A stretch of 64,000 nucleotides of DNA, taken from Flectonema sp. DT1601 (Eukaryota). The translations under genes were made by a program, and so were the position numbers. This document shows positions 6,925 through 45,181 of the stretch, one piece after another. The notes under the pieces are model-generated. The model searched no databases, had not been told where the DNA came from, and saw only the letters and a list, made by a program, of their open reading frames with translations. Where the stretch lies: contig OZ025799.1 in assembly GCA_964019425.1 (NCBI GenBank), forward strand, positions 1,116,001 to 1,180,000, read 5' to 3'. The number at the start of each line of letters is the position of its first letter. Positions within the stretch are counted from its first letter, which is position 1.

Positions 6925-6958
<34 letters not shown>

Positions 6959-11733: not shown

Positions 11734-11805
11734 CGCTCCCACTCGGGTTTGAACCGAGGCTGCTGGATTCAAAGTCCAGAGTGCTATCCACTACACCATA
11801 GGAGC
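11734..11805 (-). tRNA. tRNA-Gln (anticodon TTG)
   Basis: Reverse complement GCTCCTATGGTGTAGTGGATAGCACTCTGGACTTTGAATCCAGCAGCCTCGGTTCAAACCCGAGTGGGAGCG folds as a cloverleaf; A/B boxes present; T11 run follows immediately. Confidence 0.95.
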
Positions 11806-12293
11806 CCCCGACCAAATTTCCTTTTTTCTTTTTTTTGGTTACACTCGTCTGTGCTTCCAGACTCTTTGTTTTTGTTCTTTTCACTTCTTTGTTTTGTCTT
11901 TCTTTTATACTTTCTTTTGGTTTAAGTCTGACAAATTGGAAAACACGGGAAACATAGGTAGGCTCCGCCTGAGGACGTAAGAAGAGCGGCAACGGAAAAA
12001 TAAATGGTCACGCGTCCTTGAAATTGGACACACGAAGCTAATTCGGTTACCATTCCTACCATCGATAAGGAAAACAAAGAGTCGAGCATATAACTAGAGC
12101 GGTGGTCAAAGACCACTTGAACAGCCCGAAGGCCTGCCCTCAAGAGAAATTTATAAGGAGAATAGGAGAAGAAGGAGACAGGAGTGTTGGAAGAGACACT
12201 GAGACAACACCGAAGGTGATGTGCAGTTACCCAACCAGGAGATGATTGATAATGATGAAAATACTAAATATTGATAAAACACTTAAATGGCGA

Positions 12294-15200
12294 CTACGTG
12301 TCACCTACACAATTCCAAAGTCTCAGGTTGGATGCTTGTTCCATCCACCTGATCAACATCGCTACCGAAGGAAGCCAGCTGGTGGCAAAGATTGAGCCAA
12401 GACTGGCAGGAATGCCGTTGATGAGGATTAGATCACTTGATCGGTCCCATTTGCCTGTCAATGTAGAAAAGCCAAGGATTTCATATCTGGCTGCATCGAG
12501 TTTCTGTGATGGACAGCCTACGAGTAGGTGGAGTTGGTTGGATGGAGCGCTATGGCAGAATGGACATATGATGGCTTTCCGCCAGTTTTGCATCAGTGGA
12601 TGACACCCCGTTCTAAAATTCGCAATTCTGATTTCATCGCTCCTTTTCATGTCGGGAGGATATTTTATCGCGGCACCTTTGACGGTGTTTTTATAGCAAG
12701 TGTAACCAATTCTGTTCCAAATGTCCTTCGTGATCCCCCTCCTCACTCGGGATTTGTGATAGAAGAAGGATCCTCGGATTGGGATTTGAGGGAGGTATCT
12801 GTTGTGAGCCGATTTCTTAGCAAGCTCATCAACTTCGTCGTGTGCTTCTATCCCCATGTGAGAAGGGATGAATTGAAGATGTACTTTCATACCGCAGTTC
12901 CGTAGGTTCTCGAGGATGCCGAGGGATCTGGTGTTTCTCTGTTTACACCTGCCACCCTTCAACTCGTCCAACAATGATTTTGAGTCGGTATAGATTCTGA
13001 CTGACTTAGTTAGCCCGTCTTTCTGTACCTTCCAGTTTAAGTAGTTTGCCGCATTTTTCAAGGCATGTTGCTCAGTTCTGTAGCTGCAATCCGCACGCAC
13101 TAATCTGGTCGCATGAGCACGTTTCTTTCCGTCTCGTGACCTAGCAATGAGAGCCGCGCCTGACGCATTCAAAGAGTATGAACCGTCACAGTTGATCACC
13201 ATGTCCACCGGAGGAAGTGTCGCGTTGTAGGTAAGGAATTTCTCCCTGTCCACTGCGGGATCAGGGGATTTTGTAAAACCGCAGCTGTTGCTGATTTGAA
13301 CATTGTCCGAAGCAATCCAAGGTTTGATAGAGTCAGGTTGAACGATCCCCACACTTTCTAGTTGACCTTCAGAACGGGGAATGAGGCCACCCCAGAAGCT
13401 TCGAGGCGATGCGAGTGAGTTGGTGTCCGGCACCCAGGTCATGGCTTTGTACCTGAAATAGGCAATTTTAGTCTGCTTTTCGATTTGTCTTTTAAACGGT
13501 AAGATGTCGGCTTCCCAAAGGAGCAACTCCCTCGGAGTACATCTGCTGCATCCTGTTACGAGTCTCGCTATTTTTCTCATCTCGAAGTCGATAGCATCCG
13601 TTTTATGCTGGTTGAGCAACCAACCAAAGCTGTCCAGTGCATAGGAAATCCTCGCTGTCACGTACAAGTTTTTAACCATCTTTAGGGTCTTGTAGTCCAA
13701 TTCATATGGCTGGAGGCACTGCAGAAGGGAGATCCCTTTCTTCAGTTCGTCGTGTATTTTCTCTAACTGTTTATCAAACCTGAGCCTGTTATCAATGTAA
13801 ACACCCAGATATTTCACTGAGTCCGTGATCGGCAGTAGGAAGGCAATTTTAATTTTCGCTTTGACATTCATCTCGTCGTGGATGTTCAACATCAGTAAAT
13901 CTTCTAATTCTTGTTGAGTCCTGATGGGTTTCCCCTCTACTTCGAGGATCGTTTCACCACTCAGTAAAGTGGGCCTTGTCGTCGTCGTGATGATCACGCT
14001 GTCTAGATCAAAATAGTCAATATCTAACGAACGTACTTCCAGTGATTTTGAGAATAAGAGTTCGCGGTCGCTAGTATCAGTCAGGGTTACTTCTTTCGAT
14101 TGAATATCCATTTTCAGAGCGCAAGTCTTGGAGACTGAAAGTGCCATGTCATTATCACGGCACCACTTGTCAACGATGTCAAGTATTCGTTGAGCGTTTG
14201 AGATTGCTTCGTCCATGGTCGAGCCAAATACTGCACAAGCGGTGTCGTCTGCATACAGTGCGGTCAAAGTCGTTTCCTTCTCTTGTGAGAGAATCTTACA
14301 CAGATCGTCAACATATATTAAATAGAGTAGTGGGCCTAAGATTGATCCTTGAGGCACTCCTTTTGACAGCGTACGAAACTTACTGAAATGTCCATTTGCA
14401 TCAACTCTGACCTTCCTATTGGTTAGAAAGTCCGTTATCCATCGAACGATGAAGGTTGGGATGCCCATTCTTTGTAGTTTTGAAAGTAAAATTCGATGGT
14501 TAATCCTATCGAAGGCAGCTGTGAAATCGAATGACAAGAAGACTGACCTCCTCCCCTTCGTGTGGTTGTTTACCATGGCGTCCACCAGAATTGTGATTTG
14601 TTCGCAGGTATTTCTGCCCCGTCTGAAGCCAGCTTGAATCGGACTGAGTGCTGAGTTTTCGGTAAGCCAATGCATGAGCCTGTCGTACACCAACCTCTCA
14701 GCCAGTTTGCCAACAACCGAAGTGAGTGTGATTGGTCTGTAGCTTTTAATATCGTTCCGCGGTTTGCCCGACTTGAACATCGGTTTGATTAACCCCTGTT
14801 TCCAAAGATATGGAACATTGGAGGATCTCCACGAAGAATTGATCACCTTTAATAAACAGTCAACTGCCTTCTGAGATAAGTTCTTAAGCATTTCGTTGTG
14901 AATACCGTCAGGGCCTGCTGCTTTGCGAGGCTTCAGGTTTTTAATTGCTGCTGATATCTCGGTATCTGTGAAGTCACAACAGATGTCCAATTCCAAGTCT
15001 TCTTTCTCCAATGAAGGGGCTTCGAGTTTAGCAGCATCCCCATCGGCCACAAAGAGGTCCAGAAATGCTGCAGGTAAATCGTTCTCAGATATATTTGATA
15101 CGCTGATGTCCTTACCAGCGTCCTGTTGGAGTTCTTTAATCTTCTTGAAGGCGAAGTTAAAGTTGTTCCCCTTCTTCAGTTGGTCTTTCAGGTGACTGCC

Positions 15201-16274
15201 TTTTGATTTTAGAGATTCCGGTGAAGAGATCTTCCACTTACGTCGGCGCTTGCCCTTAAATAAGATTCTCCTCCGCACGTTCCTCGCAGCTACTTCATGT
15301 ATTATGTTATTTAATAATCCAACATTACCAGTGGCATCATCCGAGAACTTAGCCCTATCAATTCTTCTATCAAGTTGCTGTCTGAAAGCACTCCAGTTTG
15401 TAGATTTGAAATCCCAGACAGTTCGTTTCCTTGCTCCAACTGTTGCTTGAGAGAGGTGAGCCATTGTGTCGAAGATAGCGAGTAGAGGTCGATGATCCGA
15501 GTTATGTTTACTGTCTTCATTTATGATTGAAAATTCTTCTAATACAATTGATCCTTTGAAGAATATAACGTCAGGTGAGGTACCACCACCAGGAATGTCG
15601 TGTTTGGGCCGAGTTATTTGACCAGGTCTGTTTGCTACGAGAACGTCATTGCGATCCGCCCAATTAAATAATTCTTTACCAGATTTGGTTGTCCTGGTAG
15701 ACCAGACGAGGTTGTGTGCGTTGAAGTCGCCCGCAATAATAGACTTCGTTGTGATCGGAAGATCATCTTCTCTAATGATACACCCAGGGGGAGCGTAAAC
15801 GTTAATAACATTGACACCACCAACATTCAACATCATAGCTTCGATACCGCTTGTTCTCGAAAACAATTCTTCATCACTGATTCCTTGTGAGAAGCATCTC
15901 TTTGCCATTATTATAATGCCACCACCTTTTGTATTTCTGTCCTTCCTATATGTATAATAGCCAGGGTGCGAAATGTGTTCCTTCGACCAGGTTTCCTGTA
16001 AGCACAGTACATCCGGCGAGTAGTGAGAAAGGAGTCTTTGAATATAAGACCCCTTCTGACTTATCGATCTACAGTTCCAGCTCAACACTGAGAGTAACGA
16101 ATTTTCAGGTCCAGGGTTGCGTTCAACGTCGCCTGCCAGCAGTAATAAACTTCGGGTCAGTTCTTTTTCAGTTTGAGAGATAGTCGGTGCTGTTACAGTA
16201 GTCGGCTTCACCAGAACTTTACTATGATGTGCGTCATTTTTAGAATTTGAAGTTGACGGTGTTCGTTTGTCAAG
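12294..16274 (-). CDS. Copy A ORF2: 2A peptide, apurinic endonuclease, reverse transcriptase, RNase H, CCHC; no initiator AUG, in frame with ORF1
   Basis: LLLAGDVERNPGP; SWNCRS, LCLQETW, GDFNAH, SDHRPL (APE); KAAGPDG, YRPITLTS, QAGFR, GVPQGSILGP, YADD, KYLGV (RT); INCDGS, YTDSKS, FIPSH (RNase H); CPFC...HLLVGC. Confidence 0.93.
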   Translation of the reverse strand, partial: LDKRTPSTSNSKNDAHHSKVLVKPTTVTAPTISQTEKELTRSLLLLAGDVERNPGPENSLLSVLSWNCRSISQKGSYIQRLLSHYSPDVLCLQETWSKEHISHPGYYTYRKDRNTKGGGIIIMAKRCFSQGISDEELFSRTSGIEAMMLNVGGVNVINVYAPPGCIIREDDLPITTKSIIAGDFNAHNLVWSTRTTKSGKELFNWADRNDVLVANRPGQITRPKHDIPGGGTSPDVIFFKGSIVLEEFSIINEDSKHNSDHRPLLAIFDTMAHLSQATVGARKRTVWDFKSTNWSAFRQQLDRRIDRAKFSDDATGNVGLLNNIIHEVAARNVRRRILFKGKRRRKWKISSPESLKSKGSHLKDQLKKGNNFNFAFKKIKELQQDAGKDISVSNISENDLPAAFLDLFVADGDAAKLEAPSLEKEDLELDICCDFTDTEISAAIKNLKPRKAAGPDGIHNEMLKNLSQKAVDCLLKVINSSWRSSNVPYLWKQGLIKPMFKSGKPRNDIKSYRPITLTSVVGKLAERLVYDRLMHWLTENSALSPIQAGFRRGRNTCEQITILVDAMVNNHTKGRRSVFLSFDFTAAFDRINHRILLSKLQRMGIPTFIVRWITDFLTNRKVRVDANGHFSKFRTLSKGVPQGSILGPLLYLIYVDDLCKILSQEKETTLTALYADDTACAVFGSTMDEAISNAQRILDIVDKWCRDNDMALSVSKTCALKMDIQSKEVTLTDTSDRELLFSKSLEVRSLDIDYFDLDSVIITTTTRPTLLSGETILEVEGKPIRTQQELEDLLMLNIHDEMNVKAKIKIAFLLPITDSVKYLGVYIDNRLRFDKQLEKIHDELKKGISLLQCLQPYELDYKTLKMVKNLYVTARISYALDSFGWLLNQHKTDAIDFEMRKIARLVTGCSRCTPRELLLWEADILPFKRQIEKQTKIAYFRYKAMTWVPDTNSLASPRSFWGGLIPRSEGQLESVGIVQPDSIKPWIASDNVQISNSCGFTKSPDPAVDREKFLTYNATLPPVDMVINCDGSYSLNASGAALIARSRDGKKRAHATRLVRADCSYRTEQHALKNAANYLNWKVQKDGLTKSVRIYTDSKSLLDELKGGRCKQRNTRSLGILENLRNCGMKVHLQFIPSHMGIEAHDEVDELAKKSAHNRYLPQIPIRGSFFYHKSRVRRGITKDIWNRIGYTCYKNTVKGAAIKYPPDMKRSDEIRIANFRTGCHPLMQNWRKAIICPFCHSAPSNQLHLLVGCPSQKLDAARYEILGFSTLTGKWDRSSDLILINGIPASLGSIFATSWLPSVAMLIRWMEQASNLRLWNCVGDT

Positions 16275-17699
16275 TCAGTTTGAATTATCCATTTCCACAT
16301 CAGTCGTTTCAGTAGTATCGGTTGGTTCTTCAGCACAGTGTCGCTTCAGATCACCAGATATAACTGGACCCTTGCCCGGGTTGAAGGTCGGCCCCAATTT
16401 GACCGGCTTTTCTCTTTTAGTTTCCATGTTGATTACAAGGTACGCATCTTTACCCATGTCGACGAAGCTTGGTGATGGAACCGATTCAGAGATTGCAATT
16501 AACGTTTTGTTGCCTCCCTTATGAAAACTAGCCACAATTGTGTGACTCCACTTGTATGCGTGCAACAGGTGATCGCTGATCTGTTGCGTCGTGAACTTCT
16601 TAATAGCCAGTGATTTAATTATAAAACGCTGACCAGTCGGCAGTGCGGGTTTCAGAGAATCCCCGAGTGATTCTCTCACTTTTTGAGTAAACCCGGGTTG
16701 AACTTTCAGCCCAAAGCACTCTCGGAACTTCGTGATGTAGAAGCTACCTTTGATTGCTGAAAGAACTGAAAGTTTGCCCAGCACCGCTTTGAAGCCCAAG
16801 TCCTTAACGAACTGAACTGTGTTCCAAGAGTCTTGGCCATTAGACCAAGATGGGTTTCTGATGAATAGATCTCTCTTCTCACTGGAGGTGTCGCTGTTGT
16901 TGTATTCCAGAATTTCAGAAATTCTGAAGTTTGGCACACGGATCGCCATAGATGTGTGCATATCGCATTTTTTAAATCCGAAGGGCGATGTCTTCAGCTC
17001 CCACTTTTTAATTAATTCTTTCACCTTAGTGGTGAGAGTGCTCTCTGCTGATTTACTCCAGTCTTGTACGAATAGAACTGGGTCTGGCTGTGGTGGCTCG
17101 ATGGCGTCTTCTCTTGCGGCAGTGAAATCTTTGCCACAAATCGGGGTGACAAATACCCTACGAATGACGCAGGTTCCGCACTTCTTTACGACTGGAAGTG
17201 CGACTGGGACTGTTGTTTTAAACAGTTTAGACTTTGAGATGGCAGTCCAGTCGCCCTTCGTTCGTGTTTGCTTCAGTGCTTCATAATCAGCCTTTGAGCT
17301 GATGAGCACGAGTCCGTCCGCGTTGTTTTTGGAGGCATCGATTGCTTCTGAGAATTTAAGCGTAGGTGTTGCTTTAGCCCACGCTGCGTGAATGTACCAC
17401 TCTGGCAGAGTGGGTTTCTTGTTGTTGGTAGTTGGTGTCGGGCCTCCATCATTTCCATCCCTCACCGTGCTCGCCGCTTCCTGTCGTTGTCCCCCGGACT
17501 CCTTCCCCTTCCTCTCTTGCTCTGTCGTCTTTCTCTTTGACGACTCTCCTTGTTTCTCTCCGGAGTCCTCCGTCAGCTGCTCCAGCACTCTCATCGTGAG
17601 AGTCAAAACCCTCCTTCTCTTTTCTTCTCCTGCTAGTCCTTTCTCCACTTCTTGTACTAGCCGCATCACATCCAAAAGCAGCTCCTTACAACTGCTCAT
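16275..17699 (-). CDS. Copy A ORF1 protein (no recognised domain)
   Basis: Long open frame from ATG 17699; clearly homologous to copy B ORF1 (PEWxIHxAWA, TVPVALPVxKK, VLFxQDW, RNPSWSNG, VASFHKGG, LGPTxNPG). Confidence 0.85.
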   Translation of the reverse strand: MSSCKELLLDVMRLVQEVEKGLAGEEKRRRVLTLTMRVLEQLTEDSGEKQGESSKRKTTEQERKGKESGGQRQEAASTVRDGNDGGPTPTTNNKKPTLPEWYIHAAWAKATPTLKFSEAIDASKNNADGLVLISSKADYEALKQTRTKGDWTAISKSKLFKTTVPVALPVVKKCGTCVIRRVFVTPICGKDFTAAREDAIEPPQPDPVLFVQDWSKSAESTLTTKVKELIKKWELKTSPFGFKKCDMHTSMAIRVPNFRISEILEYNNSDTSSEKRDLFIRNPSWSNGQDSWNTVQFVKDLGFKAVLGKLSVLSAIKGSFYITKFRECFGLKVQPGFTQKVRESLGDSLKPALPTGQRFIIKSLAIKKFTTQQISDHLLHAYKWSHTIVASFHKGGNKTLIAISESVPSPSFVDMGKDAYLVINMETKREKPVKLGPTFNPGKGPVISGDLKRHCAEEPTDTTETTDVEMDNSN

Positions 17700-17763
17700 T
17701 ATAGTTTTATGTCTGTCAGAAAACCCGCACAAAATCGACTCTCACCAGGTAATGGTAGGAAAT

Positions 17764-17779
17764 CAATAAAGTACAGAAA
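17764..17779 (-). other. Spliced-leader 3'-end remnant at the 5' end of copy A
   Basis: Minus strand TTTCTGTACTTTATTG matches the diplonemid SL exon 3' end as I recall it (kinetoplastids: TTTCTGTACTATATTG); preceded by five extra TCTGTACT units. Confidence 0.8.
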
Positions 17780-18682
17780 GTACAGAAGTACAGAAGTACA
17801 GAAGTACAGAAGTACAGATTTCCTTTTTTCTTTCTGTCGTTCGAACGTAGATTTTCTTTCTTCTTCTCCTTCATTTTCCCACGGTACCCCAATCTTCCTG
17901 TCGCTTCATGGTTCCACGTGATCCTTTCTCCAGCTCCTTGGCTCCGATGATTTTGGTTCCTTTTTTCTATCCGATTCGCCAGCCACTATGTGCGCTTTAC
18001 TTCAAGGGTAGCATCATCATGTTGCTTATTGCCCCGAACCGCTACCACCCGCGTAGGTTTGCATTTCCAGGGGTCCCTCCGATAGGTCTCCCCCGTGATC
18101 CATTCTAGTGCCAGTTCTAATGCACGTAGTACGGGATCCTTTTCCTCTCGTGTGGCCTCATGCCACTTTTTTCCACTGCGCCTCCTACTCTCGCGCTCTC
18201 TCGTCCGTGCACAGCTTCTTCACCTTCCCAGCGTAGCACCTGCAGTGAGGTTTCACTCCATGTGCTGTACGTTCCACATGGGACCGCGTACCGCCGATCC
18301 CTGCGTGCCCTTTAACGTCTTGTCCGCTGGCTTGTACTCCGGGTCAGTGCCTGAGGAAAGCCTCCGCCCCCGCCTCCTCTCCATTATTGAAATCCTGGTA
18401 TACATCGCACGAGAGTCCCCTTTTTTCGGGGTGGCATAGAGCTTGAACTTGCTCTTCACTCGCGTCGCCAGTTTACTCCTTGTTGTGTCCGCCCGTATTG
18501 TGCTACGAGCTGCGTTCTTCTTCTCACACCGACCAAGCGACCTCCATGTTGCCTGTGGAACTTCACTCTGTACCGGTGACTTAACGATACCGTCGTAGAG
18601 TTTTTTACTACGTTTATACCGTTTAAAGGATAAATTCCTATGTTTGTGACCCTTTCCTATTTTAGTTTCACAGAGTAATATA

Positions 18683-19564
18683 ATGATGTGGTGTCTAATA
18701 TGCCTCCTACTGATTAGTGGTGTCACTGCGGGGGGTTCTGGTGTACCAGACTACTTTCCTTATGCTGTATATAGCCTTGTTTTAGGTGGAGATGACGCTG
18801 ATGCTTCAGCACCTGTGAAGCTGAAGATCGATCAATATTTTACGACGACTGATGCTAAAAGTTGCGAGAAAGCTTACATCAAAAACAAGCTTCTCACGAT
18901 TTTCTCTGCCGAAGAGTGCGTTAATGCCACAAGTAACATGGTAGAGGTTCACTTAGTCAATAGCACGGCCCTTCCTTATGGATGCAATTATTTTGCACAT
19001 CCGCTTATGAGTGACGGGCTTTCCGTGTTTTTCAATGAAAATAATGACACCAAAAAATATTGTAAACCAGAGCTTGCTGTTTGCATTTGTGAAGTTCACA
19101 CCCGAAGAGGAATTGAAGTTGGAAAGAGCTTCTTGCTGTTGATAGCGTCTCTTTTAGGTTCATTAGTCATTCTGTCTTGTATTATTTGGGTATTTTGTGT
19201 TAGAAAGACGAAGTACGAAAGAGACAAAGCAAAGAAATTACGAGACTCCATGGTTGAGCAAACAGGTGTTGGAGGGTTTGCGACATACCTCGCACTTCGA
19301 CCATTTGGTAAGGAAGGCAGTAGTCTCACATGGCGTTTTGGTGAGACGGAAGGTGACTACATGGAATCGATTAAGAGATCAACCTTTACAGTAATTCCTA
19401 AAAGGTATTACAATGATCCTGTTGATGGGTCAACTGTTGTTGTTAGAAGTAACAGTGCAGATGGTAACAGCAGCAGTGATGCAATGGATTTCAATAAGAA
19501 TGAAATCAACAGTGAAATCAACACTTCTTACAGAGCAATGAATGCAGATCCGATGGACGTATAA
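18683..19564 (+). CDS. Type I membrane protein of unknown function
   Basis: 293-aa ORF; N-terminal signal peptide, Cys-containing ectodomain, one TM helix (FLLLIASLLGSLVILSCIIWVFCV). Confidence 0.75.
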   Translation: MMWCLICLLLISGVTAGGSGVPDYFPYAVYSLVLGGDDADASAPVKLKIDQYFTTTDAKSCEKAYIKNKLLTIFSAEECVNATSNMVEVHLVNSTALPYGCNYFAHPLMSDGLSVFFNENNDTKKYCKPELAVCICEVHTRRGIEVGKSFLLLIASLLGSLVILSCIIWVFCVRKTKYERDKAKKLRDSMVEQTGVGGFATYLALRPFGKEGSSLTWRFGETEGDYMESIKRSTFTVIPKRYYNDPVDGSTVVVRSNSADGNSSSDAMDFNKNEINSEINTSYRAMNADPMDV

Positions 19565-20432
19565 CTGATCCCCATTCAAACTCACTTGATGATTACAACG
19601 GTATTAGCTTGCCGTAAGTTTAGTCAACAACTCTTGTTCCCTCTTGTTTCTCCGTAGCTTTATAATACATAAGACGCGAGTCGTCTTTTATCGGTAGTTC
19701 AATTCTATCAGTTTAAGAAAGAATAGAAGGATTTGGTTTGGTTATTTTGTTTTGTTTCTCACTAACCACATTGAACTGAAAAAGGTTGAAAAAAAGAGTC
19801 GATTTAGTTCACTGTAACGACTCTTATTTCAGTTTTTTAGCCAGGTTTAATCAGGTTTGAATTTATTAATTACATTACAACCTCATCAAGTTACCGTGTG
19901 AGGTTTATCCAAGAAAATTTTTATTTTTATTATTATTTAAACCCTTTATATTAGTTTTTTTTTTTTTTTTTTTGTAGTCCTGTCCAACGGAAGTTACCGT
20001 TGAGAAAGGGGAAAAAAAGAAAAAAAAAATCTTTTTTTTTTTTTTTTTTTTTACCTTGATTTGTTATGTTATCCACTGATTTATTGTCATAAGGCTGAGG
20101 TCCGCTAGTAGCTGGACTTGTTCTTCTTTTTTTTTTCTTTTCTTTGATTTCAGTGTTGATTATGTAAGAGTATTATTTACTCACAGGTGTTATGGTCCAA
20201 TCCCAATTTTGTCTTCAGGTATTTTCTTATTTAAGTTAATCAAAAGTTTTCCCCCATTCAGTAGTTACATGATACCGATTGTTGATTTTCTTATATTGCA
20301 ACCAGGTTTGGCCGAACCCTATTCTCGCTTTAGCCAGTTTCAAGTTGTTTTCTATTTAATATTAGTATCAAGTTACCCCCATTCAGTAGTTATATGTGAC
20401 AATACAATACAATATAAAAAAAAAAAAAAAAA

Positions 20433-21869: not shown

Positions 21870-22257
21870 CCAGAAGAAGTCTTTACCTCTGAAACTGATC
21901 GTTATACACTTCTTTAGGTTGATTCAAGTATTTAATATTTATCCAGGGCGATGGACAGGCTTCTCAGAGATTTGTGAAAAAGTCTGTCATCGATTTATGA
22001 TTTAACTTTTGTTCCTGGGAACTGGTCTGAGCTTTTTTCTGGTTGCTTTCCTTATCCGTATTCACAGAATGCTTTACCCCGCTTATGATTGTTGTACTTG
22101 ATTGTGACTTCTTTGTTTAACATTACAGGTTTCGATACTACAATGATATATAATTGAGGTGGGGATTTAATTAACTATTTGTTAGTCGTCGTTGTGTTTA
22201 ATCGTTTTGGCTACAGCTTGCACCCCACTTTCGGGAATAAAATAAAAATAAAATAAT

Positions 22258-35537: not shown

Positions 35538-35957
35538 ATTAATTCATCGCTGAGCTGATGGGAGTCCTTTTTTAGAATTCTTTTCTCTTCCCTTTCAAAT
35601 TGTATTTGCGGAGATTAGCTCGCATCGTACCATATATTTCCAAATAGTTCGGTGTATGCAAGTGACTCTGTTCTCTTGTTGTACAATTCCCAATTGCTGT
35701 CCATTCACTTCTTTAATGTCCCTCGCCTTGTTTATTTATTCCCACTTTAGATTCCACCCGCCCTGTCTAAAATTTTAGTTAATGATTTCTGTGAGTATAT
35801 CCTCCGTTAGTATATTTCATAACAGGAAGATAAACCATCACAACCCCGGTGAGATCACCCATTGGAGTTAATCGACCTTCGTAGGATTCGTATTTGTGAG
35901 TTTGTTGCTCACCATTATTGACGTCAGGTGGAAGACAAAAGTTAACAACCAAACAAC

Positions 35958-36368
35958 ATGGCGAAGAAAAAAATGTCGAAAGCACAGCGTGCGCGTCTTG
36001 AAGAACAGCAGGAGCTTGAAAGAGCTCTTCAAGAGCAGCAGGAGAAACGGGAAATTGTGGAAAAAGGAAACGAACACAGCGACTTGTTGTCGATGTTGTT
36101 GAGGGGAGCTGGTCGACTTGTTGATCATCCGAACTTGGAATCTGCTGGACACCAATCGCTGACGTACGGTGACGCAACTGATTGCAGTGTGTGCGGTCGT
36201 CCCTGGGGAGATTTCTGTGCCTGTCTTGGCGTACCTCACAACGAACCTGACTTCTCAACATCAGCCTCTCCCTGGAGATGTAACAGAGCTGGCTCTCCAA
36301 TTATAGACCGCGAGGCTCAACAATCTCCAAAAAGGAAATTGATAAAACGCCGCTCTGTTACGAAGTAA
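35958..36368 (+). CDS. Small hypothetical protein (coiled-coil N-terminus, Cys cluster)
   Basis: 136-aa ORF; MAKKKMSKAQRARLEEQ..., CSVC...FCAC. Confidence 0.55.
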   Translation: MAKKKMSKAQRARLEEQQELERALQEQQEKREIVEKGNEHSDLLSMLLRGAGRLVDHPNLESAGHQSLTYGDATDCSVCGRPWGDFCACLGVPHNEPDFSTSASPWRCNRAGSPIIDREAQQSPKRKLIKRRSVTK

Positions 36369-37187
36369 CAGTTGCTGGCTTTGCTTTAACATTTCTTGTT
36401 TCTCTCAGAAGGTACTTCTTCAAGTCCTTCATTCTTATTAATAACCAGACTCTTTCTGTTCAATAGGACAGCAGCTTGCGAAGTTCTCGTCCATTCATTC
36501 TTATTAAACCACAACCAGTTCTCATGTAATGGCTTCGGCTCTTTCTTGTTGACTTCTTCTTTTTTTTGTTATCCACTTTGTGTTCCCTTTATAAGCTTGC
36601 GGTCATTTTGTATAAGACCACAGACACACATCCCTACTGATCTTGCAATTGTTCCTGTTGTCTTGTTTTTATTTTTATTGTTGGTTGTTTGATGATACAA
36701 TTTCAACAAAACCTCACTTTAAGAGATGCAGAAGATGAGCATCTTTTGTTTTGATAAAAAACCAAATCTTTTTTTCAATTTTCTTTTTTTGCATTCTGAT
36801 GAAGTAAAACTTTTGATCCCAAAAAAAAAAGTGTTTTCCTCAAAGTTGCAAAGGCCACTGTTGCCTGTTTTGGTTGAGCCACAGTTTCGAACGAAAAATT
36901 TTAAACATAAAGGAGGAAATGAACAAATGATGTTTCTTTTGACTCTACTTTCTCACCATTAACTTGGTTTGTATCCATGTGCTCCGACTACACAAGTTTT
37001 AGGTGTAGGGAGCATTGGCTTTATAAAAAAAAACCTTTCAGTTCTTTTTGCTTCACAATTTCTGTTACCAACACAGCACACCGAGATGGTGGAGTTTGTG
37101 ACAGCAAGATTTTATGAAGGGTAGCGTTGGAATGATTATTTTATTGTTTTCTGTCAGATTTATAGAAGAAGAAAAAAAGAAAACAAA

Positions 37188-37684
37188 ATGGCCAAGGGAA
37201 AGAGATCAAAGATCAAGCAAAAGCACAAGAGAGAGTTCAAAGAAAGAGTATGTTGTCTTAATTATTGTTTCTTGTAGTCGTCTTGTTCACCAGAAAAAAA
37301 CAAACAACAAAATCAGGTTGCTCCAGCTGTTGCTGCTCGTATCGCTGGATTAAACCAAAAGTTGATGACTGCTGTTGGTGGACGTATGTACTTATTGTAT
37401 TTGGTAGGAAGGGTTTGAGCTAAGCTGCTTTACAGGTAACATAAATACAACAAACAGCTGTGACTCAAACTGACGTTACGATGACCAACGTGACTCCAGC
37501 AGCACCAACGCCAACACCATCTGCTCCTGTTCCTCTGACCACAGCTACACTTTCAACTGGTGGGAATAAGAAACTGAGATCCACTGCGAGGAAAGTCATC
37601 AAAACTGTTTCTTCAACGAGCCAAAAGAAGGACAAGAAAATTAAAATTAATCTGACTGCTGCGAAGTACAAAGTGAAGCAGTGA
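37188..37684 (+). CDS. Small basic protein, LLPH/DUF2423-like; introns 37248-37316, 37384-37457
   Basis: MAKGKRSKIKQKHKREFKER N-terminus; two GTATGT...AG introns restore a single frame ending KYKVKQ. Confidence 0.6.
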
Positions 37685-38864
37685 GGAGGTTATAGAAAGT
37701 CTTAAGCTACTCTAACGCCTTCAGTTTGGTCGATCCATTCTTATCACACAAACAGTTAACAATCTAAAGGAGTCATGAGGGATCACTACTACCGTAGTGA
37801 ACTGTTCCTATGTTGGAATTGATTAGCAGTTCTGACAGAAGTCTTTACTTAAGGTCTGCCACCTCATGCTCTGCAATTGCTCCACCTTCTGGAGATCAAG
37901 AACCCTTTAAAGAGCAGGATCTTTTCCTCTGTCGAAAGACTTTGGGGGATTCGCTGTTTGTCTTCGATTGCTTTGATTCTGTTCCTCTTCGTCGGGATTT
38001 TTTCATGCAAACGAACGTAGTTTCAAAAGAGAGATGTTCTGATTCGTCTGAACTGACGAGTTTTTCTTTTTTTCACTTCTTTTTTCCTCTCTTCCTTGCC
38101 CTCCTTTTGTCATCAAAATCTTTACGTGAAATCATTTTTAGAGGTTGAAATTTTTTTTATCCCACTTGAACCTTTTTCTTTCGTTCTTTCAGATTACAAA
38201 AATGAAAATACTCTGATTACAAGTGCAGTTGGAGAAAACATTACTTTGTGGATTTGTTCAGTAGCGTGAACAGAGGTAGAGAAGGTTTCCGTGTAGCAGT
38301 TGGACATAGGGCAAGTGTAATTTTCACCTCAAATAGACATCATGTACTCTTAACTTTTAATTTACTTTTCAGGATGTAATGTAGGCCTTTGAAACAACAT
38401 CAGCAACAGCATGCAAGCAATTCTGATGCACTGACCCAAGTGATAAAGATTTCCTAAAAAATCGTGCCTGCAAGAGTCCATTTCTTAAAAGGTCTTGTAG
38501 ATCCTTCTCCGCATATTCTTTGCAAAGAAAAAACAGCTGCCACTTTTTTTCTGTGGCGTTCCTGGCGAAACCTACACTCTGCCGTATTACATTATACCCC
38601 TGGTTTTGGTTTCCCAGGGCTCACGATTAATTCGTAATTGAATAACTCGATTTCGTACTGCACTGAATGACTATAACACGGAAAAAGAGACATGTATGCA
38701 GATAAGTTAGAAACATTGATTATAATGTAGAGCAAGTACGGAGTGTTATTTTAGTCACTGTGTCATGAGTTTTTAATATTATTATTGAGTTCTGAGAGAT
38801 TTATATTTGTATGAACCTAATCAAACAAAAAGCCAATTGACATAGCTGTTGAAAAGAAAAAAAG

Positions 38865-38936
38865 CAACCGTGGCAGGACTCGAACCTGCAACCGCCTGAT
38901 CCGTAGTCAGGCGCTCTTCCATTGAGCCACACGGTC
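38865..38936 (-). tRNA. tRNA-Arg (anticodon ACG)
   Basis: Reverse complement GACCGTGTGGCTCAATGGAAGAGCGCCTGACTACGGATCAGGCGGTTGCAGGTTCGAGTCCTGCCACGGTTG folds as a cloverleaf; T7 run downstream. Confidence 0.95.
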
Positions 38937-39451
38937 AATAAATGGAAAAAAGCTTTTCTTTTTTTTTTTTTTTTTTGGTTACACTCGTCTGTGCTACCAA
39001 ACTCTTTGTTTTTGTTCTTTTCACTTCTATGTTTTGTCTTTCTTTTATACTTTCTTTTTGACTTAAGTCTGACAAATTGGAAAACACGGGAAACATAGGT
39101 AGGCTCCGCCTGAGGACGTAAGAAGAGCGGCAACGGAAAAAATAAATGGTCACGCGTCCTTGAAATTGGACACACGAAGCTAATTCGGTTACCATTCCTA
39201 CCATCGATAAGGAAAACAAAGAGTCGAGCATATAACTAGAGCGGTGGTCAAAGACCACTTGAACAGCCCGAAGGCCTGCCCTCAAGAGAAATTTATAAGG
39301 AGAATAGGAGAAGAAGGAGACAGGAGTGTTGGATGAGACACTGCGACAACACCGAAGGTGATGTGCAGTTACCCAACCAGGAGATGATTGATAATGATGA
39401 AAATACTAAAAATAATAACAAATTGATATTGGCGACTACATGTCACCTACT

Positions 39452-42400
39452 TTATTTCCAAAGTCTAAGGTTAGATGTCTGTTCCATCCACCTTATGATC
39501 AACGCGAGTGATGGAAGCCACGCCAAAGTGAAGAGAGCTTCAAGGTTAGGAATTTCGTTGGCAATAATAAGTTCCCGGTCGCGATCCCACTTGCCGGTCA
39601 GTGTTGAGAAGCCCAGGATTTTGAACCTGGCCGAATCGAGTTTGGGAGATTGACATCCCTGCAGCAGGTGAACCTGTGAGGACGGTTCGCCACAAAATGG
39701 GCAGTCGATCGTCTTGCGCCAGTTCTGAATTAGCGGGTGACATCCTGTCCGGAAGTTCGCTATCCGTATCTCGTCGGCTCTTTCCATCCCAGGAGGGTAT
39801 TTAACGGAACGGCCTCCGATGAGGTGCTTGTAGCAAGTGTAACCACTCACGTTAAGAAGATCTTTTTTGATGCAGCGCTTAACATGAGATGATCGCGAGA
39901 AGTACGTGCCTTTGACTAGCACAGGACGGATGTTCTTGTTGTGTGCTGCTTCCTTTGCAAGCGCATCAACTTCATCGTGAAATCCGATTCCAATGTGCGA
40001 GGGGATGAATTGCAGATGCACTTTCATTTCACACATGCGCAGGTATTCCAGTATCTTCAAGGACTCAGTGTTCTTCTGTCTGCACCTTCCACCCAGCAGT
40101 TCATCCAGAAGGGATTTTGAGTCCGTGAATATCCTCACAGATTTCATTGAAGTATCTTTGCTAAACACTGTTCTCAGATGTCTAGCCGCGTTCTTCAGAG
40201 CATGTTGTTCAGCCCTGTAGCTGCAGTCAGCTTGATAAAGCCTAGACGCGTAAGCAGATCGAAGGCCGCTACGTGACTTGGCAATATGAGCCGCACCGGC
40301 CGCGCCGGAAGCAGAGTAGGAGCCATCGCAGTTGATTACCATGTCGACAGGAGGTAACGTTCCAATGTACGACATGAATTTTTCTTTGTCCACCGCAGGG
40401 TTCGCGGACTTCGGAAATCCGCAGCCGTTGCTAATCCTAAGGTTTGTCGGAGATACCCAGGGTTCCATCGAGTCAGGCTGCACAAGGCACTGGCTTTCTC
40501 GCTGACTATCAGTGCCAGGGATTAGGCCAGCCCAGTAGCTTTGTGTTGAGGCGAGTCTGTTTGTATTAGGTATCCAAGTCATGGCTTTATACCTGTAGTA
40601 CGCAATTTTTGTCTGCTTTTCAATCTGACGTTTAAAAGGATACATGTCAGACTCCCACAACAGTAACTCTCTTGGCGTACACTTGCTGCATCCAGTAACC
40701 AGTCTGGCGACCTTCCTCAGTTCGAAGTCGATGCTGTCAACGCTGCTGCTTATCAGCCAACCAAAACTGTCAAGCGCATATGAGATTCTTGCGGTTACAT
40801 AAAGGTTCTTAACCATGTTAAGAGTCTTGTAGTCCAGTTCGTACGGCTGGAGGCACTGCAGAAGTGATATCCCCCTCTTTAATTCTTCGTGAATCTTGCC
40901 TACTTGTTTGTGGAAGGTGAGCCTGTCGTCGATGTGAACTCCGAGGTATTTTACTGAGTCGACTATCGGTAACAGAAAGGCAGTTTTGAATATTGCTCTC
41001 ACAACCATAATGCTGTCCTCACGAACGACGTATTGCAGCATCAAGTTGTCGAGTTCTTCTTGTGTCTTGATTGGGATTCCTCCAATTTCAAGAATCGTTT
41101 CGCCACTTTGAAGCATGGGTCTGGGTGATTTGAGATTGATATGATTCTCGATGTCACCATAGTCAAGTTTAAGCATGCGTTCCTCAACAGATCTAGAGAA
41201 AAGCAGTTCGCGATTACACGTATCGTTTAGTACTATGCCCTTCGAGCGAACATTCATCTTAAGCGCACAGGTTTTGGAGACCGATAAGGCCATGTCGTTT
41301 TCAAAACACCATTGATCCACTTTGTCGAGTACTAACTGAGCATTCGAAAGAGCTTCTTCCATGTTTGATCCTGACACCACACATGCTGTGTCATCCGCAT
41401 ACAGAGCAGACGTCGTTGTTTCCTTCTCCAGTTCCAAAATCTTGCAGAGGTCATCAACGTAGATAAGATAAAGAAGAGGACCCAGGATCGATCCCTGGGG
41501 AACCCCCTTAGCCAGAGTACGGAATTCGCTAAAATACCCATTCGCTTCAACTCTAACCTTCCTGTTTGTAAGAAAGTCTGTGATCCATCTGATAATAACA
41601 TTCGGAACACCCATCTTTACTAATTTTAATAAAAGTATCTTATGGTTGATCCTGTCAAACGCAGCAGTAAAGTCGAATGACAAGAACACTGATCTCTTTT
41701 CTTCCATGTGGCTCCTTACGATAGCATCTACTAGAACGGTGATCTGCTCGCAGGTATTTCTCCCCTTTCTGAATCCAGCCTGTAGTGGACTGAGCGACGA
41801 ATGTTTTGTGAGCCAGTGCATGAGTCGGTCATACACGAGCCTCTCCGCAAGTTTCCCAACAACCGAGGTGAGCGTTATTGGTCTGAAACTCTTTAGTTCA
41901 TTACGAGGTTTCCCTGCCTTGAACATGGGCTTGATTAGTCCCTGTTTCCATTGGTACGGTACTTTTGAAGTCTTCCAAGAAGTGTTAATAATTCTCAAGA
42001 GGTATTCCACTGTTGCCGGAGTGAAGTTTTTGATCATCTCATTGTGAACTCCATCAGGTCCTGCAGCCTTGCGGGTCTTCAGGTTCTTAATCGCAGCTTT
42101 AATTTCAGCCATTGTGAAATCACAGCAAATATCTATTTCATTATCACCTTCTGAGAGTGCGGGGGCCTCTAGCGATAATATTTCCGATTTCGAGACAAAC
42201 ATGTCCAAGAATGCTGATGGGAGATCGCAGTCAGAGATGTTGTTGACACTGATATCTTTACCAGCATCTTGCTGCAGTTCTTTGATCTTCTTAAACGCAA
42301 AGGCAAAGTTGTTACCCTTGTCAAGTTGATCACGTAGGTGGACACCCTTCGATTTGGTAGAATCAGGGGTTGACGTCTTCCACTTTCGTCTCCGTTTCCC

Positions 42401-43363
42401 TTTGAAAAGGAGACGTCGACGAATGAATTTAGCCGCCACTTCATGCAGTATGTTGTTAAAGAGCTTGGCATTCGCAGTTGCATCATCGGAGAGTCTTGAT
42501 TTTCTAATTCTCTTTTCGAGCATGGTCCCAAAGCAGTTCCAGTCCGTAGACTTGAAGTCCCATACAACGCGTTTCTTCGAACCTATCGTGGCCCGTGCAA
42601 GTTGGCACATGGGATCCAGTACGGTGTAGAGAGGTCGATGATCTGACCCATGTTTATTATCTTCTTCAATTGCACTAAATTCTTCAAGAACCATCGAGTT
42701 TGAAAAGAATACTACATCTGGCGAGGTACCACCCCCCGGGACGTCAGGAAAAGGCCTTGTGATTGACCCCATCTTGTTAGCAACCAGTAGATCATTTTGG
42801 GCTGCCCATGCATGTAGAGTTGAACCTGCTCTCGTCGATTTAAGTGACCACACCGGATGATGGGCATTAAAGTCACCCGCGACGATTGCTTTCGTTGAGA
42901 CTGGAAGATCTGACTCTCTGATCATGCATCCCGGGGGAGCATAAACATTGATGATGTCAATCTTTCCACCTATGTTGACCTTCACGACCTCGACATCATT
43001 TAAGTGTGGCGGAAGCTCCATGTTCAAACGCTGCTGAGTGTGGCATTTTTTCACCATAGAAATAACCCCTCCACCTCGTGTTGCCCTATCATTCCGATAG
43101 GTGAAATAGTCCGTGTGCGAAATTACATCATTCGTCCAAGTCTCCTGTAGGCACAGTACGTCAGGCGCATAGGCATTTAGCAGCTTGTGAATATAAGCGC
43201 CTTTGTTCCCCATCGATCGACAGTTCCAGCTCAGTAGAGATATGAGAGAGTTGTCAGGGCCAGGGTTGCGTTCGACGTCGCCTGCCTTTAGCAGCAGTTC
43301 ACGAGCCGTATCCTTTTCCACAAGTGAGTTGGTCGGACTGAGTTCATCCTCATCGTCATCTAG
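39452..43363 (-). CDS. Copy B ORF2: 2A peptide, APE, RT, RNase H, CCHC; no initiator AUG, in frame with ORF1
   Basis: LLLKAGDVERNPGP; SWNCRS, GDFNAH, SDHRPL; GVPQGSILGP, YADD, KYLGV; INCDGS, FTDSKS; CPFC...HLLQGC. Confidence 0.93.
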   Translation of the reverse strand, partial: LDDDEDELSPTNSLVEKDTARELLLKAGDVERNPGPDNSLISLLSWNCRSMGNKGAYIHKLLNAYAPDVLCLQETWTNDVISHTDYFTYRNDRATRGGGVISMVKKCHTQQRLNMELPPHLNDVEVVKVNIGGKIDIINVYAPPGCMIRESDLPVSTKAIVAGDFNAHHPVWSLKSTRAGSTLHAWAAQNDLLVANKMGSITRPFPDVPGGGTSPDVVFFSNSMVLEEFSAIEEDNKHGSDHRPLYTVLDPMCQLARATIGSKKRVVWDFKSTDWNCFGTMLEKRIRKSRLSDDATANAKLFNNILHEVAAKFIRRRLLFKGKRRRKWKTSTPDSTKSKGVHLRDQLDKGNNFAFAFKKIKELQQDAGKDISVNNISDCDLPSAFLDMFVSKSEILSLEAPALSEGDNEIDICCDFTMAEIKAAIKNLKTRKAAGPDGVHNEMIKNFTPATVEYLLRIINTSWKTSKVPYQWKQGLIKPMFKAGKPRNELKSFRPITLTSVVGKLAERLVYDRLMHWLTKHSSLSPLQAGFRKGRNTCEQITVLVDAIVRSHMEEKRSVFLSFDFTAAFDRINHKILLLKLVKMGVPNVIIRWITDFLTNRKVRVEANGYFSEFRTLAKGVPQGSILGPLLYLIYVDDLCKILELEKETTTSALYADDTACVVSGSNMEEALSNAQLVLDKVDQWCFENDMALSVSKTCALKMNVRSKGIVLNDTCNRELLFSRSVEERMLKLDYGDIENHINLKSPRPMLQSGETILEIGGIPIKTQEELDNLMLQYVVREDSIMVVRAIFKTAFLLPIVDSVKYLGVHIDDRLTFHKQVGKIHEELKRGISLLQCLQPYELDYKTLNMVKNLYVTARISYALDSFGWLISSSVDSIDFELRKVARLVTGCSKCTPRELLLWESDMYPFKRQIEKQTKIAYYRYKAMTWIPNTNRLASTQSYWAGLIPGTDSQRESQCLVQPDSMEPWVSPTNLRISNGCGFPKSANPAVDKEKFMSYIGTLPPVDMVINCDGSYSASGAAGAAHIAKSRSGLRSAYASRLYQADCSYRAEQHALKNAARHLRTVFSKDTSMKSVRIFTDSKSLLDELLGGRCRQKNTESLKILEYLRMCEMKVHLQFIPSHIGIGFHDEVDALAKEAAHNKNIRPVLVKGTYFSRSSHVKRCIKKDLLNVSGYTCYKHLIGGRSVKYPPGMERADEIRIANFRTGCHPLIQNWRKTIDCPFCGEPSSQVHLLQGCQSPKLDSARFKILGFSTLTGKWDRDRELIIANEIPNLEALFTLAWLPSLALIIRWMEQTSNLRLWK

Positions 43364-45022
43364 TCAGTTGAGATCAAAGTCCGAATCGTTACTTTCCATT
43401 TCTACGTCACGGTTTTTATCACTATCCTGCTTAGCAGCAGATTCGGTGGGCGGTGTTGTTGTTTGTGCTGTTGCTGGTGCTGGCGTTGGTGTTGGTGCTG
43501 ATGGTGCTGGCGCTGGTGTTGGTGCTGATGTCGGCTGCTGAGTTGGCTGTTGTGGTTGAGGAGTTGTTTTTTGTCTCTTCAGGGTTCCCGTTAGTTTTTG
43601 AGCCGCGTCGCCTGGGTTGTAGGTTGGGCCTAGCGGTTTTCTGTCAGTTCGTTTAACTTCTTTGTTTATTACAAGGTATTCATTAGTACCTATGCTTACG
43701 AAGTTGGGCGGTTGAGATTTCGCAATTGCAACAATTGTAGTACTCCCTCCTTTATGGAAAGAAGCAACAACTGTGTGTTCCCAGTTGTGTGAGGACTTCA
43801 AGAAGTCGCTGATCTGCGCTGTCGAGTACTTACGAATCGCCATCGAATTTATAACAAACCTGTCGCCCGAGGGCAGTGCAGGCTTGATTGCCGCGTTGAG
43901 CTTAATGCTGACCCTGATATTACAGTCAGGGTGGACTCGGAGTCCAAAACAGCTTTTAAACCTGCACATGTAGAATTTTCCTTTGAATTCATCAAGTGCA
44001 GAAGTCTTGGACTTCGCTGCCAGGAAGCCAAGGTCGTTTTTGAATTGCAACGTTGGCCAAACGTCACTTCCGTTCGACCAACTCGGGTTTCTGAAAAAGA
44101 CATTCTTGGGTTTGTCAGTTTCGGGTTCGCTGTTGTTGTATTCCAGAACCTCGTGTACTTGGTTTCTGGGGACTCTGAAAGCCATCGAGGTGTGGGACTC
44201 GTTCTTTCTGTAGCTAAAGGGGTCCGCCTTTATCTTCAATTTCTTTAGAATATCGGTCGTTTTGACGGTCAATTCTTTCTCAGCTGATTTTCCCCAGTCT
44301 TGGATGAATAGAACTGGGTTGGGAGTTGGAATCTGGTGGCTAGTTGCTGCTTTAGAAAAGTCGTCACCAAATACGTGCGTGTAAAATACGCGCCTGATCT
44401 CGCAGACGCCACCCTTTTTTATCACCGGTAATGCTACTGGAACGGTGCTCTTTGTGAGCGGGATTTTGCTGATAGCAGCCCAACGGCCGCTCTTCTTTGT
44501 TTGGCGGAGTGCTTCTAAGTCTAGCTTCGAACGAACTAAAACAAGACCAGAGGTAAGGTTGTTTGTAGCATTAGCTGCTACGTCGTAACTGATGGTGGCC
44601 ACAGTGCCTGCCCACGCACCGTGAATGTGCCACTCCGGGTAGCTTGCTTTTGCTTTTCCCTTCGTGGTTTGATTGTCCTTCATTGCTGTCGGTATCGGCA
44701 ATGAGAACGGCTTCGTACTCGTCTGTTGATTAGAAGCTGTAGATGCTCCTGTAGTTGGTTGGTTGACACCTGTGGTTGAGGGTGTCGTCGCTTCTGCTGC
44801 CGTCGTCGCGGTCGCTTCCGTCCCACCACTCCCATCGAGTGTGTCCGGTGTCCTCCTCTTCATCTCCGGGTTCCCACCTTCTGACCCAGCTACGAATTGA
44901 ACGATCTCCAGTAGGAGATTTGCCACCCTTCTTTCCTTCTCTTGCTCCGGGATCCCGTCTTCTCCCACTATCTTCAGGAGGTTTATTGCCTCCGATACCA
45001 ACCTCCTCAGGTTGTCTCTCAT
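43364..45022 (-). CDS. Copy B ORF1 protein
   Basis: Open frame from ATG 45022; homologous to copy A ORF1, with longer Thr/Pro-rich linkers. Confidence 0.85.
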   Translation of the reverse strand: MRDNLRRLVSEAINLLKIVGEDGIPEQEKERRVANLLLEIVQFVAGSEGGNPEMKRRTPDTLDGSGGTEATATTAAEATTPSTTGVNQPTTGASTASNQQTSTKPFSLPIPTAMKDNQTTKGKAKASYPEWHIHGAWAGTVATISYDVAANATNNLTSGLVLVRSKLDLEALRQTKKSGRWAAISKIPLTKSTVPVALPVIKKGGVCEIRRVFYTHVFGDDFSKAATSHQIPTPNPVLFIQDWGKSAEKELTVKTTDILKKLKIKADPFSYRKNESHTSMAFRVPRNQVHEVLEYNNSEPETDKPKNVFFRNPSWSNGSDVWPTLQFKNDLGFLAAKSKTSALDEFKGKFYMCRFKSCFGLRVHPDCNIRVSIKLNAAIKPALPSGDRFVINSMAIRKYSTAQISDFLKSSHNWEHTVVASFHKGGSTTIVAIAKSQPPNFVSIGTNEYLVINKEVKRTDRKPLGPTYNPGDAAQKLTGTLKRQKTTPQPQQPTQQPTSAPTPAPAPSAPTPTPAPATAQTTTPPTESAAKQDSDKNRDVEMESNDSDFDLN

Positions 45023-45080
45023 AATTGCTTTTTCCTGTGAAACGTACCCACTGATTCTTACCAATATTAGGTTGCGAAAT

Positions 45081-45096
45081 CAATAAAGTACAGAAA
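45081..45096 (-). other. Spliced-leader 3'-end remnant at the 5' end of copy B
   Basis: Minus strand TTTCTGTACTTTATTG, followed by ATTTC as in copy A. Confidence 0.8.
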
Positions 45097-45181
45097 GCAA
45101 GATGGATGCGACAAAAAGCTTTTCATTTTGTCGCATCCATCTTGTATATCTCTCATTTAGCTTTTTTTAAAAAAAAATAAA

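Follow-up and report, generated by a model that had tools for sequence, protein, structure and literature searches.

How do the long interspersed nuclear elements (LINEs) of Flectonema sp. DT1601 come to lie directly upstream of tRNA genes? The question is raised by a stretch of 64,000 nt (assembly GCA_964019425.1, contig OZ025799.1, positions 1,116,001 to 1,180,000), here called the window. It holds two such elements, E1 and E2, each placed before a different tRNA gene. The sites are made up as follows, with positions counted from the first letter of the window.

11734..11805, (-) strand: tRNA-Gln(TTG), target of E1 (ARAGORN; Rfam 63.5 bits)
11806..11815, (-) strand: 10-nt spacer, tRNA-Gln -1 to -10 (sequence)
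11816..11828, no strand: E1 target-site duplication, tRNA side, -11 to -23 (repeat search; 3 nt more possible, T tract)
11829..17817, (-) strand: E1, LINE, whole element, poly(A) towards tRNA-Gln
17818..17830, no strand: E1 target-site duplication, far side (repeat search)
38864/5..38936, (-) strand: tRNA-Arg(ACG), target of E2 (ARAGORN; Rfam 66.8 bits)
38937..38946, (-) strand: 10-nt spacer, tRNA-Arg -1 to -10 (sequence)
38947..38958, no strand: E2 target-site duplication, tRNA side, -11 to -22 (repeat search)
38959..45097, (-) strand: E2, LINE, whole element, poly(A) towards tRNA-Arg
45098..45112, no strand: 15 additional bases that repeat the flank 45130-45144 in inverted orientation (sequence)
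45113..45124, no strand: E2 target-site duplication, far side (repeat search)

With ARAGORN and Rfam two tRNA genes were detected in the window, for Gln and Arg, and both are targets. Besides tRNA and large-subunit rRNA, no family was found in the Rfam scan of the window at E 0.1, and no ribozyme in the untranslated regions (UTRs). The longest exact repeat flanking E1 (11816/17818) comprises 13 bp, or 16 bp if the T's common to the tail are counted, and that of E2 (38947/45113) 12 bp. At both sites 10 nt separate mature nucleotide 1 from the duplication. The slack of about 1 nt comes from a base common with the 5' end of the element (E1) and from a homopolymer together with a fold-back (E2); the 15 extra bases of E2 are likely a fold-back of the cut target strand. 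An earlier note on this DNA had claimed two intact, co-oriented copies before different tRNAs with poly(A) facing the gene, a spacing of exactly 10 nt with duplication ends at -23 and -22, and a hit at every tRNA gene of the window. The unbroken reading frames, the exact repeats and both tRNA searches confirm these three claims.

Both strands of the window contain 335 TTTTC sites, and E1 and E2 occupy those preceding the two tRNA genes. This placement is not due to chance (2/335 x 1/334, about 2e-5). Among 150 A runs of at least 6 nt the elements likewise sit at the two beside tRNAs, with equal offset and strand. The long protein genes between E1 and E2 are encoded on the plus strand; hence, relative to the host gene array both elements and their tRNAs run in antisense direction.

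The elements themselves consist of these parts.

11829..11837, (-) strand: E1 poly(A) tail (sequence)
11838..12293, (-) strand: E1 3' UTR, structured, with terminal stem-loop (sequence comparison)
12294..16274, (-) strand: E1 open reading frame (ORF) 2, with 2A, APE, reverse transcriptase (RT), RNase H and CCHC (Pfam and motifs)
16107..16130, (-) strand: E1 2A-like motif DVERNPGP, directly before APE (sequence; consensus in passages of PMC3708506)
16275..17699, (-) strand: E1 ORF1, 474 aa, no Pfam family (open frame)
38959..38977, (-) strand: E2 poly(A) tail (sequence)
38978..39451, (-) strand: E2 3' UTR (sequence comparison)
39452..43363, (-) strand: E2 ORF2 frame with APE, RT, RNase H and CCHC; 2A at 43256-43279 (Pfam and motifs)
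43364..45022, (-) strand: E2 ORF1, 552 aa, no Pfam family (open frame)

No stop or frameshift was found in ORF1 and ORF2 of either element, and the residues of APE, RT, RNase H and CCHC are kept. APE and RT score in Pfam. RNase H was recognized by motif and by similarity to the Pfam RNase H of E3 (E 1e-15), a second LINE of the window; with the Pfam RNase H model no score was obtained for E1 and E2 themselves. Both have a poly(A) tail and a target-site duplication, and long terminal repeats (LTRs) are absent. Judged by these features, E1 and E2 fit an APE-type non-LTR retrotransposon with RNase H (I/Ingi/R1-type architecture). Their identity is 43% for ORF1 and 67% for ORF2, and four-fold sites are saturated with 68/227 identical (30%). 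Because four-fold sites agree only to this extent, E1 and E2 are old subfamilies and not one duplicated insertion.

In contrast to the 30% at silent sites, 420 of the last 430 nt are identical between E1 and E2 (97.7%). This points to a recent swap of the 3' UTR between the subfamilies. Since the 3' UTR is common to both, one protein could have inserted both RNAs. A further piece of 47 nt (51770-51816), 96% identical to the middle of this 3' UTR with its UUCG hairpin, was found within an rRNA relic; neither a tail nor a tRNA is nearby.

Flanks outside the window were examined with contigs from four public sequencing runs aligned to E1 and with protein gene calls crossing junctions. Among the loose ends, at least 21 and mostly from unrelated low-complexity matches, record 11 of run X4 (151 nt, depth 2.5) was the sole one reaching past the E1 tail. 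Behind a 16-nt A run it has 16 further nt and a stretch of 14 nt that fits G-N6-TGGTCTA and corresponds to tRNA nucleotides 1-14 with the A box; the offset of 16 nt is the same as for tRNA-Gln. In the 30-mers of the window this pattern occurs 900 times among 127,940 with G1 (0.7%) and 4356 times without it (3.4%). After the 150 window A runs it occurs once, namely at tRNA-Gln itself.

Protein record P0268, found with an ORF1 profile, is the translation of an E2-type 3' end; six Lys follow, and after another 15 nt a tRNA-like frame begins. This frame has 21 of 22 tRNA invariants, a value reached by 0/3000 shuffles (20 invariants: 21/3000). Possible pairing comprises 4/4 of the D stem, 5/5 of the anticodon stem and 4/5 of the T stem. 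By its sequence this flank appears to be a degenerate tRNA or a tRNA-like gene with A and B boxes, and an E1-type ORF1 opens about 18 codons past it. In total, six 3' ends of E1/E2 type have a visible flank. Four face a tRNA or tRNA-like gene, two face another element (P0283 and P0173) and none faces ordinary DNA. The four tRNA(-like) targets are four different sequences, and co-orientation was found in 4/4. Position-specific insertion upstream of tRNAs as a habit of the family, earlier claimed from two flanks, is thereby extended to four.

The earlier note had also stated that the duplicated sequences differ. The duplications do differ, but their targets match when registered on the cut. Aligned on the far end of the duplication, TTTTC followed by TTTCTGTCG stands against TTTTC followed by ATTTTGTCG, with 12 of 14 bases the same. 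The motif TT.TGTCG after the far duplication lies at 17831-17839 (E1) and 45125-45133 (E2). With respect to this motif the first cut falls in the same place at both sites, and the second cut keeps its place relative to the tRNA. The motif could belong to the promoter, reflect what the endonuclease prefers, or have arisen by chance.

We consider it rather probable, by analogy to known elements, that E1 and E2 reach their site by a ribonucleoprotein that binds the RNA polymerase III (Pol III) initiation complex and then cuts the nearest T tract. The ribonucleoprotein would be held by TFIIIC/TFIIIB on the A and B boxes. A first cut of the template strand in the T tract at -22/-23 would prime reverse transcription from the poly(A), and the second cut, at about -10/-11, would come close to where Pol III starts. 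Between them the two cuts would enclose the stretch melted at initiation, an idea based on the size of the Pol III bubble. The start site itself is placed at about -10 in passages of PMC5911963. Because the second cut adjoins this start, the tRNA gene would keep its start region, and its internal promoter would be retained after insertion. We infer tethering because of the precedents Ty3, DGLT-A and TRE5-A. Ty3 uses TFIIIB and DGLT-A contacts Tfc4 of TFIIIC through RNase H, as described in parts of PMC6101501; for TRE5-A, a contact of ORF1 to TFIIIB is described in PMC5911963. TFIIIB and TFIIIC are reported for trypanosomatids.

Several observations weigh against tethering. At the outside flanks the A run conceals the exact junction, which lies somewhere from -15/-16 to -33; this range is compatible with -22/-23 but no proof of it, and only the two window sites (n=2) give the fixed distance. 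Record X4 ends on its other side in 16 unrelated letters, so that it could be a chimera or a copy of very small length. In P0268 the tRNA, known via translation alone, is degenerate, with G19 missed and 4/7 pairs in the acceptor stem. Flanks are visible for six 3' ends, compared with 138 ORF2 records of E1/E2 type. In P0298, one of 198 cluster members, the 3' UTR is broken by an ORF1. No empty allele was seen in the four aligned runs, which leave most of E1 uncovered. The common 3' UTR also means that two diverged proteins need not both target tRNAs. Furthermore, five tandems (P0283, P0173, P0184, P0327 and P0362) with mixed families occur among 373 protein records. In these the poly(A) joins the next element, full-length or 5'-clipped, directly, and a non-A duplication is absent. 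Tandems weigh against tethering because insertion at -11/-23 does not predict them; they may result from template jumping or from insertion into tails, and protein-derived junctions are biased towards tandems. Finally, the motif at the cut is carried by 2 of the 335 TTTTC sites, both at E1 and E2, and 650 of 55,945 site pairs (1.2%) are equally alike.

The last point leads to sequence-specific cutting, in which the endonuclease reads CGACA-N4-GAAAA (tRNA-sense strand) and Pol III contact is unneeded. By this account tRNA genes happen to carry the sequence around -31 to -18, where it might serve as a promoter element upstream of the gene. The agreement across the cut and the rarity of the motif among TTTTC sites speak for it, as does the first cut, which keeps the exact motif register and yet is 1 nt apart relative to the tRNA (-23, -22). 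The comparison is post hoc with n=2, however, and the share of equally similar pairs is the one given above. The second cut follows the tRNA register and not the motif. At the translated 5' junction of P0126, an A-rich stretch, the motif is impossible at that spacing (by eye), and the X4 flank probably has no G at the cut (fourth mismatch; place inferred). We regard this explanation as quite unlikely. Also unlikely, if a little less so, is an account in which the family favors A/T tracts loosely wherever chromatin is open, selection acts on the result, and the fixed distance is a small-sample effect. Older poly(A) tails would then be targets too, and the tracts upstream of tRNAs would be one accessible and harmless class. 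An A tract at about -16 to -22 is present at all four targets, and the five poly(A)-joined tandems of mixed families fit this explanation as well. It has to account for both elements being beside tRNAs, with equal offset and strand, in a window with 150 A runs. Tandems, moreover, would arise as well by template jumping, which is known for R2, or if elements stack up at a tRNA that has been hit before. The roughly 450 ORF2 records in nine clusters may outnumber the tRNA genes, which would favor a loose preference; for Diplonema papillatum, 211 tRNA genes are given in PMC10161547.

It is very improbable that chance, co-duplication of an insertion with its tRNA, a tRNA carried by the element or an assembly artefact explains the arrangement. 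No read or contig was found that spans a whole junction plus tRNA, and coverage in the four runs is 2-8 fold at best, as an artefact would allow. Yet isotypes, duplications and flanks differ between E1 and E2, silent sites are saturated, the fold-back of E2 copies its own flank, and two outside flanks agree. Transduction of the tRNA was rejected, as the tRNA lies outside the duplications that enclose the element; co-duplication with the tRNA was rejected, as the isotypes differ.

The 5' ends of E1 and E2 were compared with the leader table in PMC3795323 and gave the following features.

17764..17779, (-) strand: E1 5' end, equal to spliced leader nt 24-39
17780..17817, (-) strand: E1 5' junction, where a leader 8-mer is present five times (slippage copies; sequence)
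45081..45096, (-) strand: E2 5' end, equal to spliced leader nt 24-39

The same 16-mer opens E1 and E2; it matches twice in the window, with 0.16 matches expected. It equals nt 24-39 of the euglenozoan spliced leader and begins directly after the leader's internal AG. A third copy with a leader start, at nt 24/25, is P0283. P0370, a member of the E3 family, contains nearly the whole leader and then a second nt 24-39 piece (1/373 protein records); 11 of 12 leader residues are as expected from the last row of the table in PMC3795323 (by eye). In dinoflagellates the internal AG of the leader accepts the next leader and leaves a relict, as described in passages of PMC5585692, and the leader plus relict of P0370 appears to follow this pattern of retrogene relict leaders. 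The element RNA would thus be trans-spliced and the leader copied into DNA along with the element, and the internal AG of the copied leader would serve as splice acceptor for the next round. Copies ending at nt 24 have lost that internal AG. The slippage copies of E1 and the fold-back of E2 are signs of trouble in completing the 5' junction.

ORF2 is in frame with ORF1 in both elements (spacing a multiple of 3), with a single TGA between them. The stop context AAC-TGA-CT is the same in E1 and E2 despite saturated four-fold sites, and Asn is the last ORF1 residue in 6/6 aligned rows, Flectonema included. UGA-CUA is a leaky stop context. The first in-frame ATG of ORF2 lies inside APE (E1: 15908), and the real ORF2 frames extend upstream, without interruption, as far as the stop of ORF1. 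The 2A motif GDVERNPGP precedes APE in E1 and E2, and a variant was found in Flectonema record P0004. ORF2 may therefore be made via read-through of the single UGA and would then be freed by 2A skipping; alternatively, a GTG start could replace read-through. For ORF1 of E2, structure prediction suggested repeated alpha/beta units at low confidence (mean pLDDT 50.8). A Foldseek search with this model gave no match at E 0.001, and an Atlas comparison gave unnamed clusters only.

Among the matches listed, the closest named proteins are from transcripts of Flectonema neradi, a diplonemid, with 40-50% identity for ORF2 and 48-50% for ORF1; an E1/E2-like ORF1 is thus conserved in Flectonema. By these matches the host is likely a diplonemid, one of a group of marine flagellates. 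The protein collection contains 101 E2-type and 37 E1-type ORF2 records (138 with fragments included), and sister families account for 42, 74 and 26. Because ORF2 records are so numerous, the family is large and was recently active. In a quick RT tree with 60 of 61 rows (P0219 left out), E1, E2, the sister families and Flectonema form one clade (support 99) and E3 falls into another (100); the rows include no named reference clade such as Ingi, L1Tc or NLTR. Trypanosome-named proteins were absent among the 120 best of 390 matches, most of which are unnamed, and no NLTR sequence was among the named matches listed. A pattern scan of JGI metagenomes gave one chance match, in unrelated coding DNA. 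In the viral contigs searched no relative was found, and two Streptomyces matches in prokaryote genomes were rejected as too weak. The frame of the window that spans the 3' UTR was absent from the protein collection. In P0188, an ORF2 of a sister family, the last 175 residues resemble a DNA-transposase domain (by eye), which suggests a nested DNA transposon.

E3 belongs to a second LINE lineage.

45170..51213, (+) strand: E3 (Pfam and frames)
45182..47011, (+) strand: E3 ORF1
47008..50928, (+) strand: E3 ORF2, with one in-frame stop at 49855-49857
51202..51213, (+) strand: E3 poly(A)

Its ORFs overlap as ATGA, RNase H is present and no 2A motif was found. ORF2 is 26-28% identical to that of E1 and E2, with 31, 91 and 39 related records; in BLAST, ORF1 showed no similarity to ORF1 of Flectonema. 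A structure model of a piece of this ORF1 reached pLDDT 38 and was set aside. The element is 5'-clipped about 10 nt before its ATG and starts about 45 bp past the far duplication of E2, directed away from it. Before the arrival of E2, the clipped 5' end was about 66-70 bp from tRNA-Arg, head-first (n=1). Apart from A runs, the search for an E3 duplication of at least 8 bp gave none. The E3 family shares the spliced-leader start (P0370) and the poly(A)-joined tandems (P0327, P0362). Directly behind the E3 poly(A) lies a degenerate 5' part of large-subunit rRNA (51243-51907, (+) strand); about 3600 such rRNA pieces are given for the D. papillatum genome in passages of PMC10161547.

The remaining window contains further features. 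A 1557-aa membrane protein (676-5349, (+) strand) carries GH18 chitinase domains in three nearly identical copies, along with a long Pro-Thr stalk. Two tandem genes (53268-55493 and 56761-59061, (+) strand) show a ubiquitin-like start (by eye) and BspA-type leucine-rich repeats in units of 75 nt; other phases contain long open frames as well. A dispersed 40-nt repeat, 88% alike, occurs at 9816-9855 and in opposite orientation at 55843-55882 and 60079-60118. A perfect 30-nt inverted repeat (2-31 and 431-460; poly(T) plus 8 nt) encloses 399 nt and is possibly a small non-autonomous element.

Retroelements targeting tRNA genes are documented for yeasts and dictyostelids, and a euglenozoan case would carry this convergence to a third eukaryotic supergroup. 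The host genome is not compact, which bears on the explanation of tRNA genes as a safe harbor in gene-dense genomes. Fixed cuts around the Pol III start would offer a handle on what sets the second-strand cut in target-primed reverse transcription, and a natural system of precise insertion. The spliced-leader 5' ends would be a different answer to the loss by trans-splicing faced in trypanosomes (PMC1874656), and the in-frame UGA with 2A a testable way to tune the ratio of ORF1 to ORF2. Only tentatively we propose the wider picture: diplonemid LINEs may have come to Pol III tethering by a route separate from that of amoebae and yeasts, landing tail-first with cuts that bracket the start. At the same genes the E3 lineage may insert head-first in the window used by TRE5, and both lineages may recycle the internal AG of the copied leader against obligatory trans-splicing, opposite to Ingi/L1Tc.

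The trait of Pol III-tethered elements, insertion at different tRNAs at a set distance, was exact in 2/2 window sites, and two outside flanks are compatible with it. The literature search revealed nothing on euglenozoan tRNA-targeted LINEs or leader-capped autonomous LINEs, with most subscription papers and Repbase outside its range; tRNA targeting is not mentioned in the passages of PMC12278014 on the trypanosomatid mobilome, and the D. papillatum genome paper defers transposon analysis in the part available (PMC10161547). The earlier note knew of no description of such an element, but this kind has already been described. According to passages of PMC5006619, Dp_NLTR-A of Dictyostelium purpureum also has an ORF1 and an ORF2 with APE-RT-RNase H and inserts position-specifically, 2-6 bp upstream of mature tRNAs (16 copies measured). 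LINEs with RNase H that sit next to the 5' end of tRNAs are thus a known kind, which tempers the significance of E1 and E2. The same source gives 39-64 bp for NLTR-B (Pp_NLTR-B) and 13-33 bp for DGLT-A. In contrast to the NLTR distances, E1 and E2 have 10 nt to the duplication and 22-23 to the tail. The ORFs of NLTR-A overlap by 13 bp, as described there, whereas those of E1 and E2 are in frame with a 2A motif. NLTR-A is amoebozoan and E1 and E2 are likely diplonemid; the distinction is made by description and not by sequence.

Ty3 and DGLT-A are LTR elements with integrase, unlike the poly(A) LINEs E1 and E2 with target-primed reverse transcription, and DGLT-A inserts in either orientation, whereas the E1/E2-type flanks are all co-oriented. 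TRE5-A/B/C and TRE3 are, like E1 and E2, non-LTR elements targeting tRNA genes. They belong to the L1 clade and lack RNase H, which E1, E2 and E3 possess; TRE5 has a zinc finger. TRE5 inserts about 50 bp upstream in opposite orientation and TRE3 downstream, whereas E1 and E2 lie tail-first at the start site. E3 matches the TRE5 geometry, being head-first and within the range of 37-90 bp (n=1). The earlier description as an Ingi/I-like LINE holds for APE-RT-RNase H and 2A, but not for the ORF1 and the spliced-leader 5' end. Ingi/L1Tc are euglenozoan as well and carry 2A directly before APE, a motif also reported for Rex1, L2, Crack and CR1 (passages of PMC3708506). They consist of a single ORF without ORF1 according to the same passages, unlike E1 and E2. 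Their RNA starts from a 77-bp internal promoter and is unspliced, which preserves the 5' end that trans-splicing would remove (parts of PMC1874656); E1 and E2 start with nt 24-39 of the spliced leader. E1 and E2 were rejected as members of Ingi/L1Tc, TRE5 or NLTR-A, as they depart from features that define these groups. In dinoflagellates, the leader is also retroposed into DNA with its internal AG accepting the next one, but in host retrogenes (passages of PMC5585692); here it forms the 5' end of an autonomous LINE itself. New here are the lineage, the spliced-leader 5' ends, the layout of in-frame UGA and 2A, and the swapped 3' UTR.

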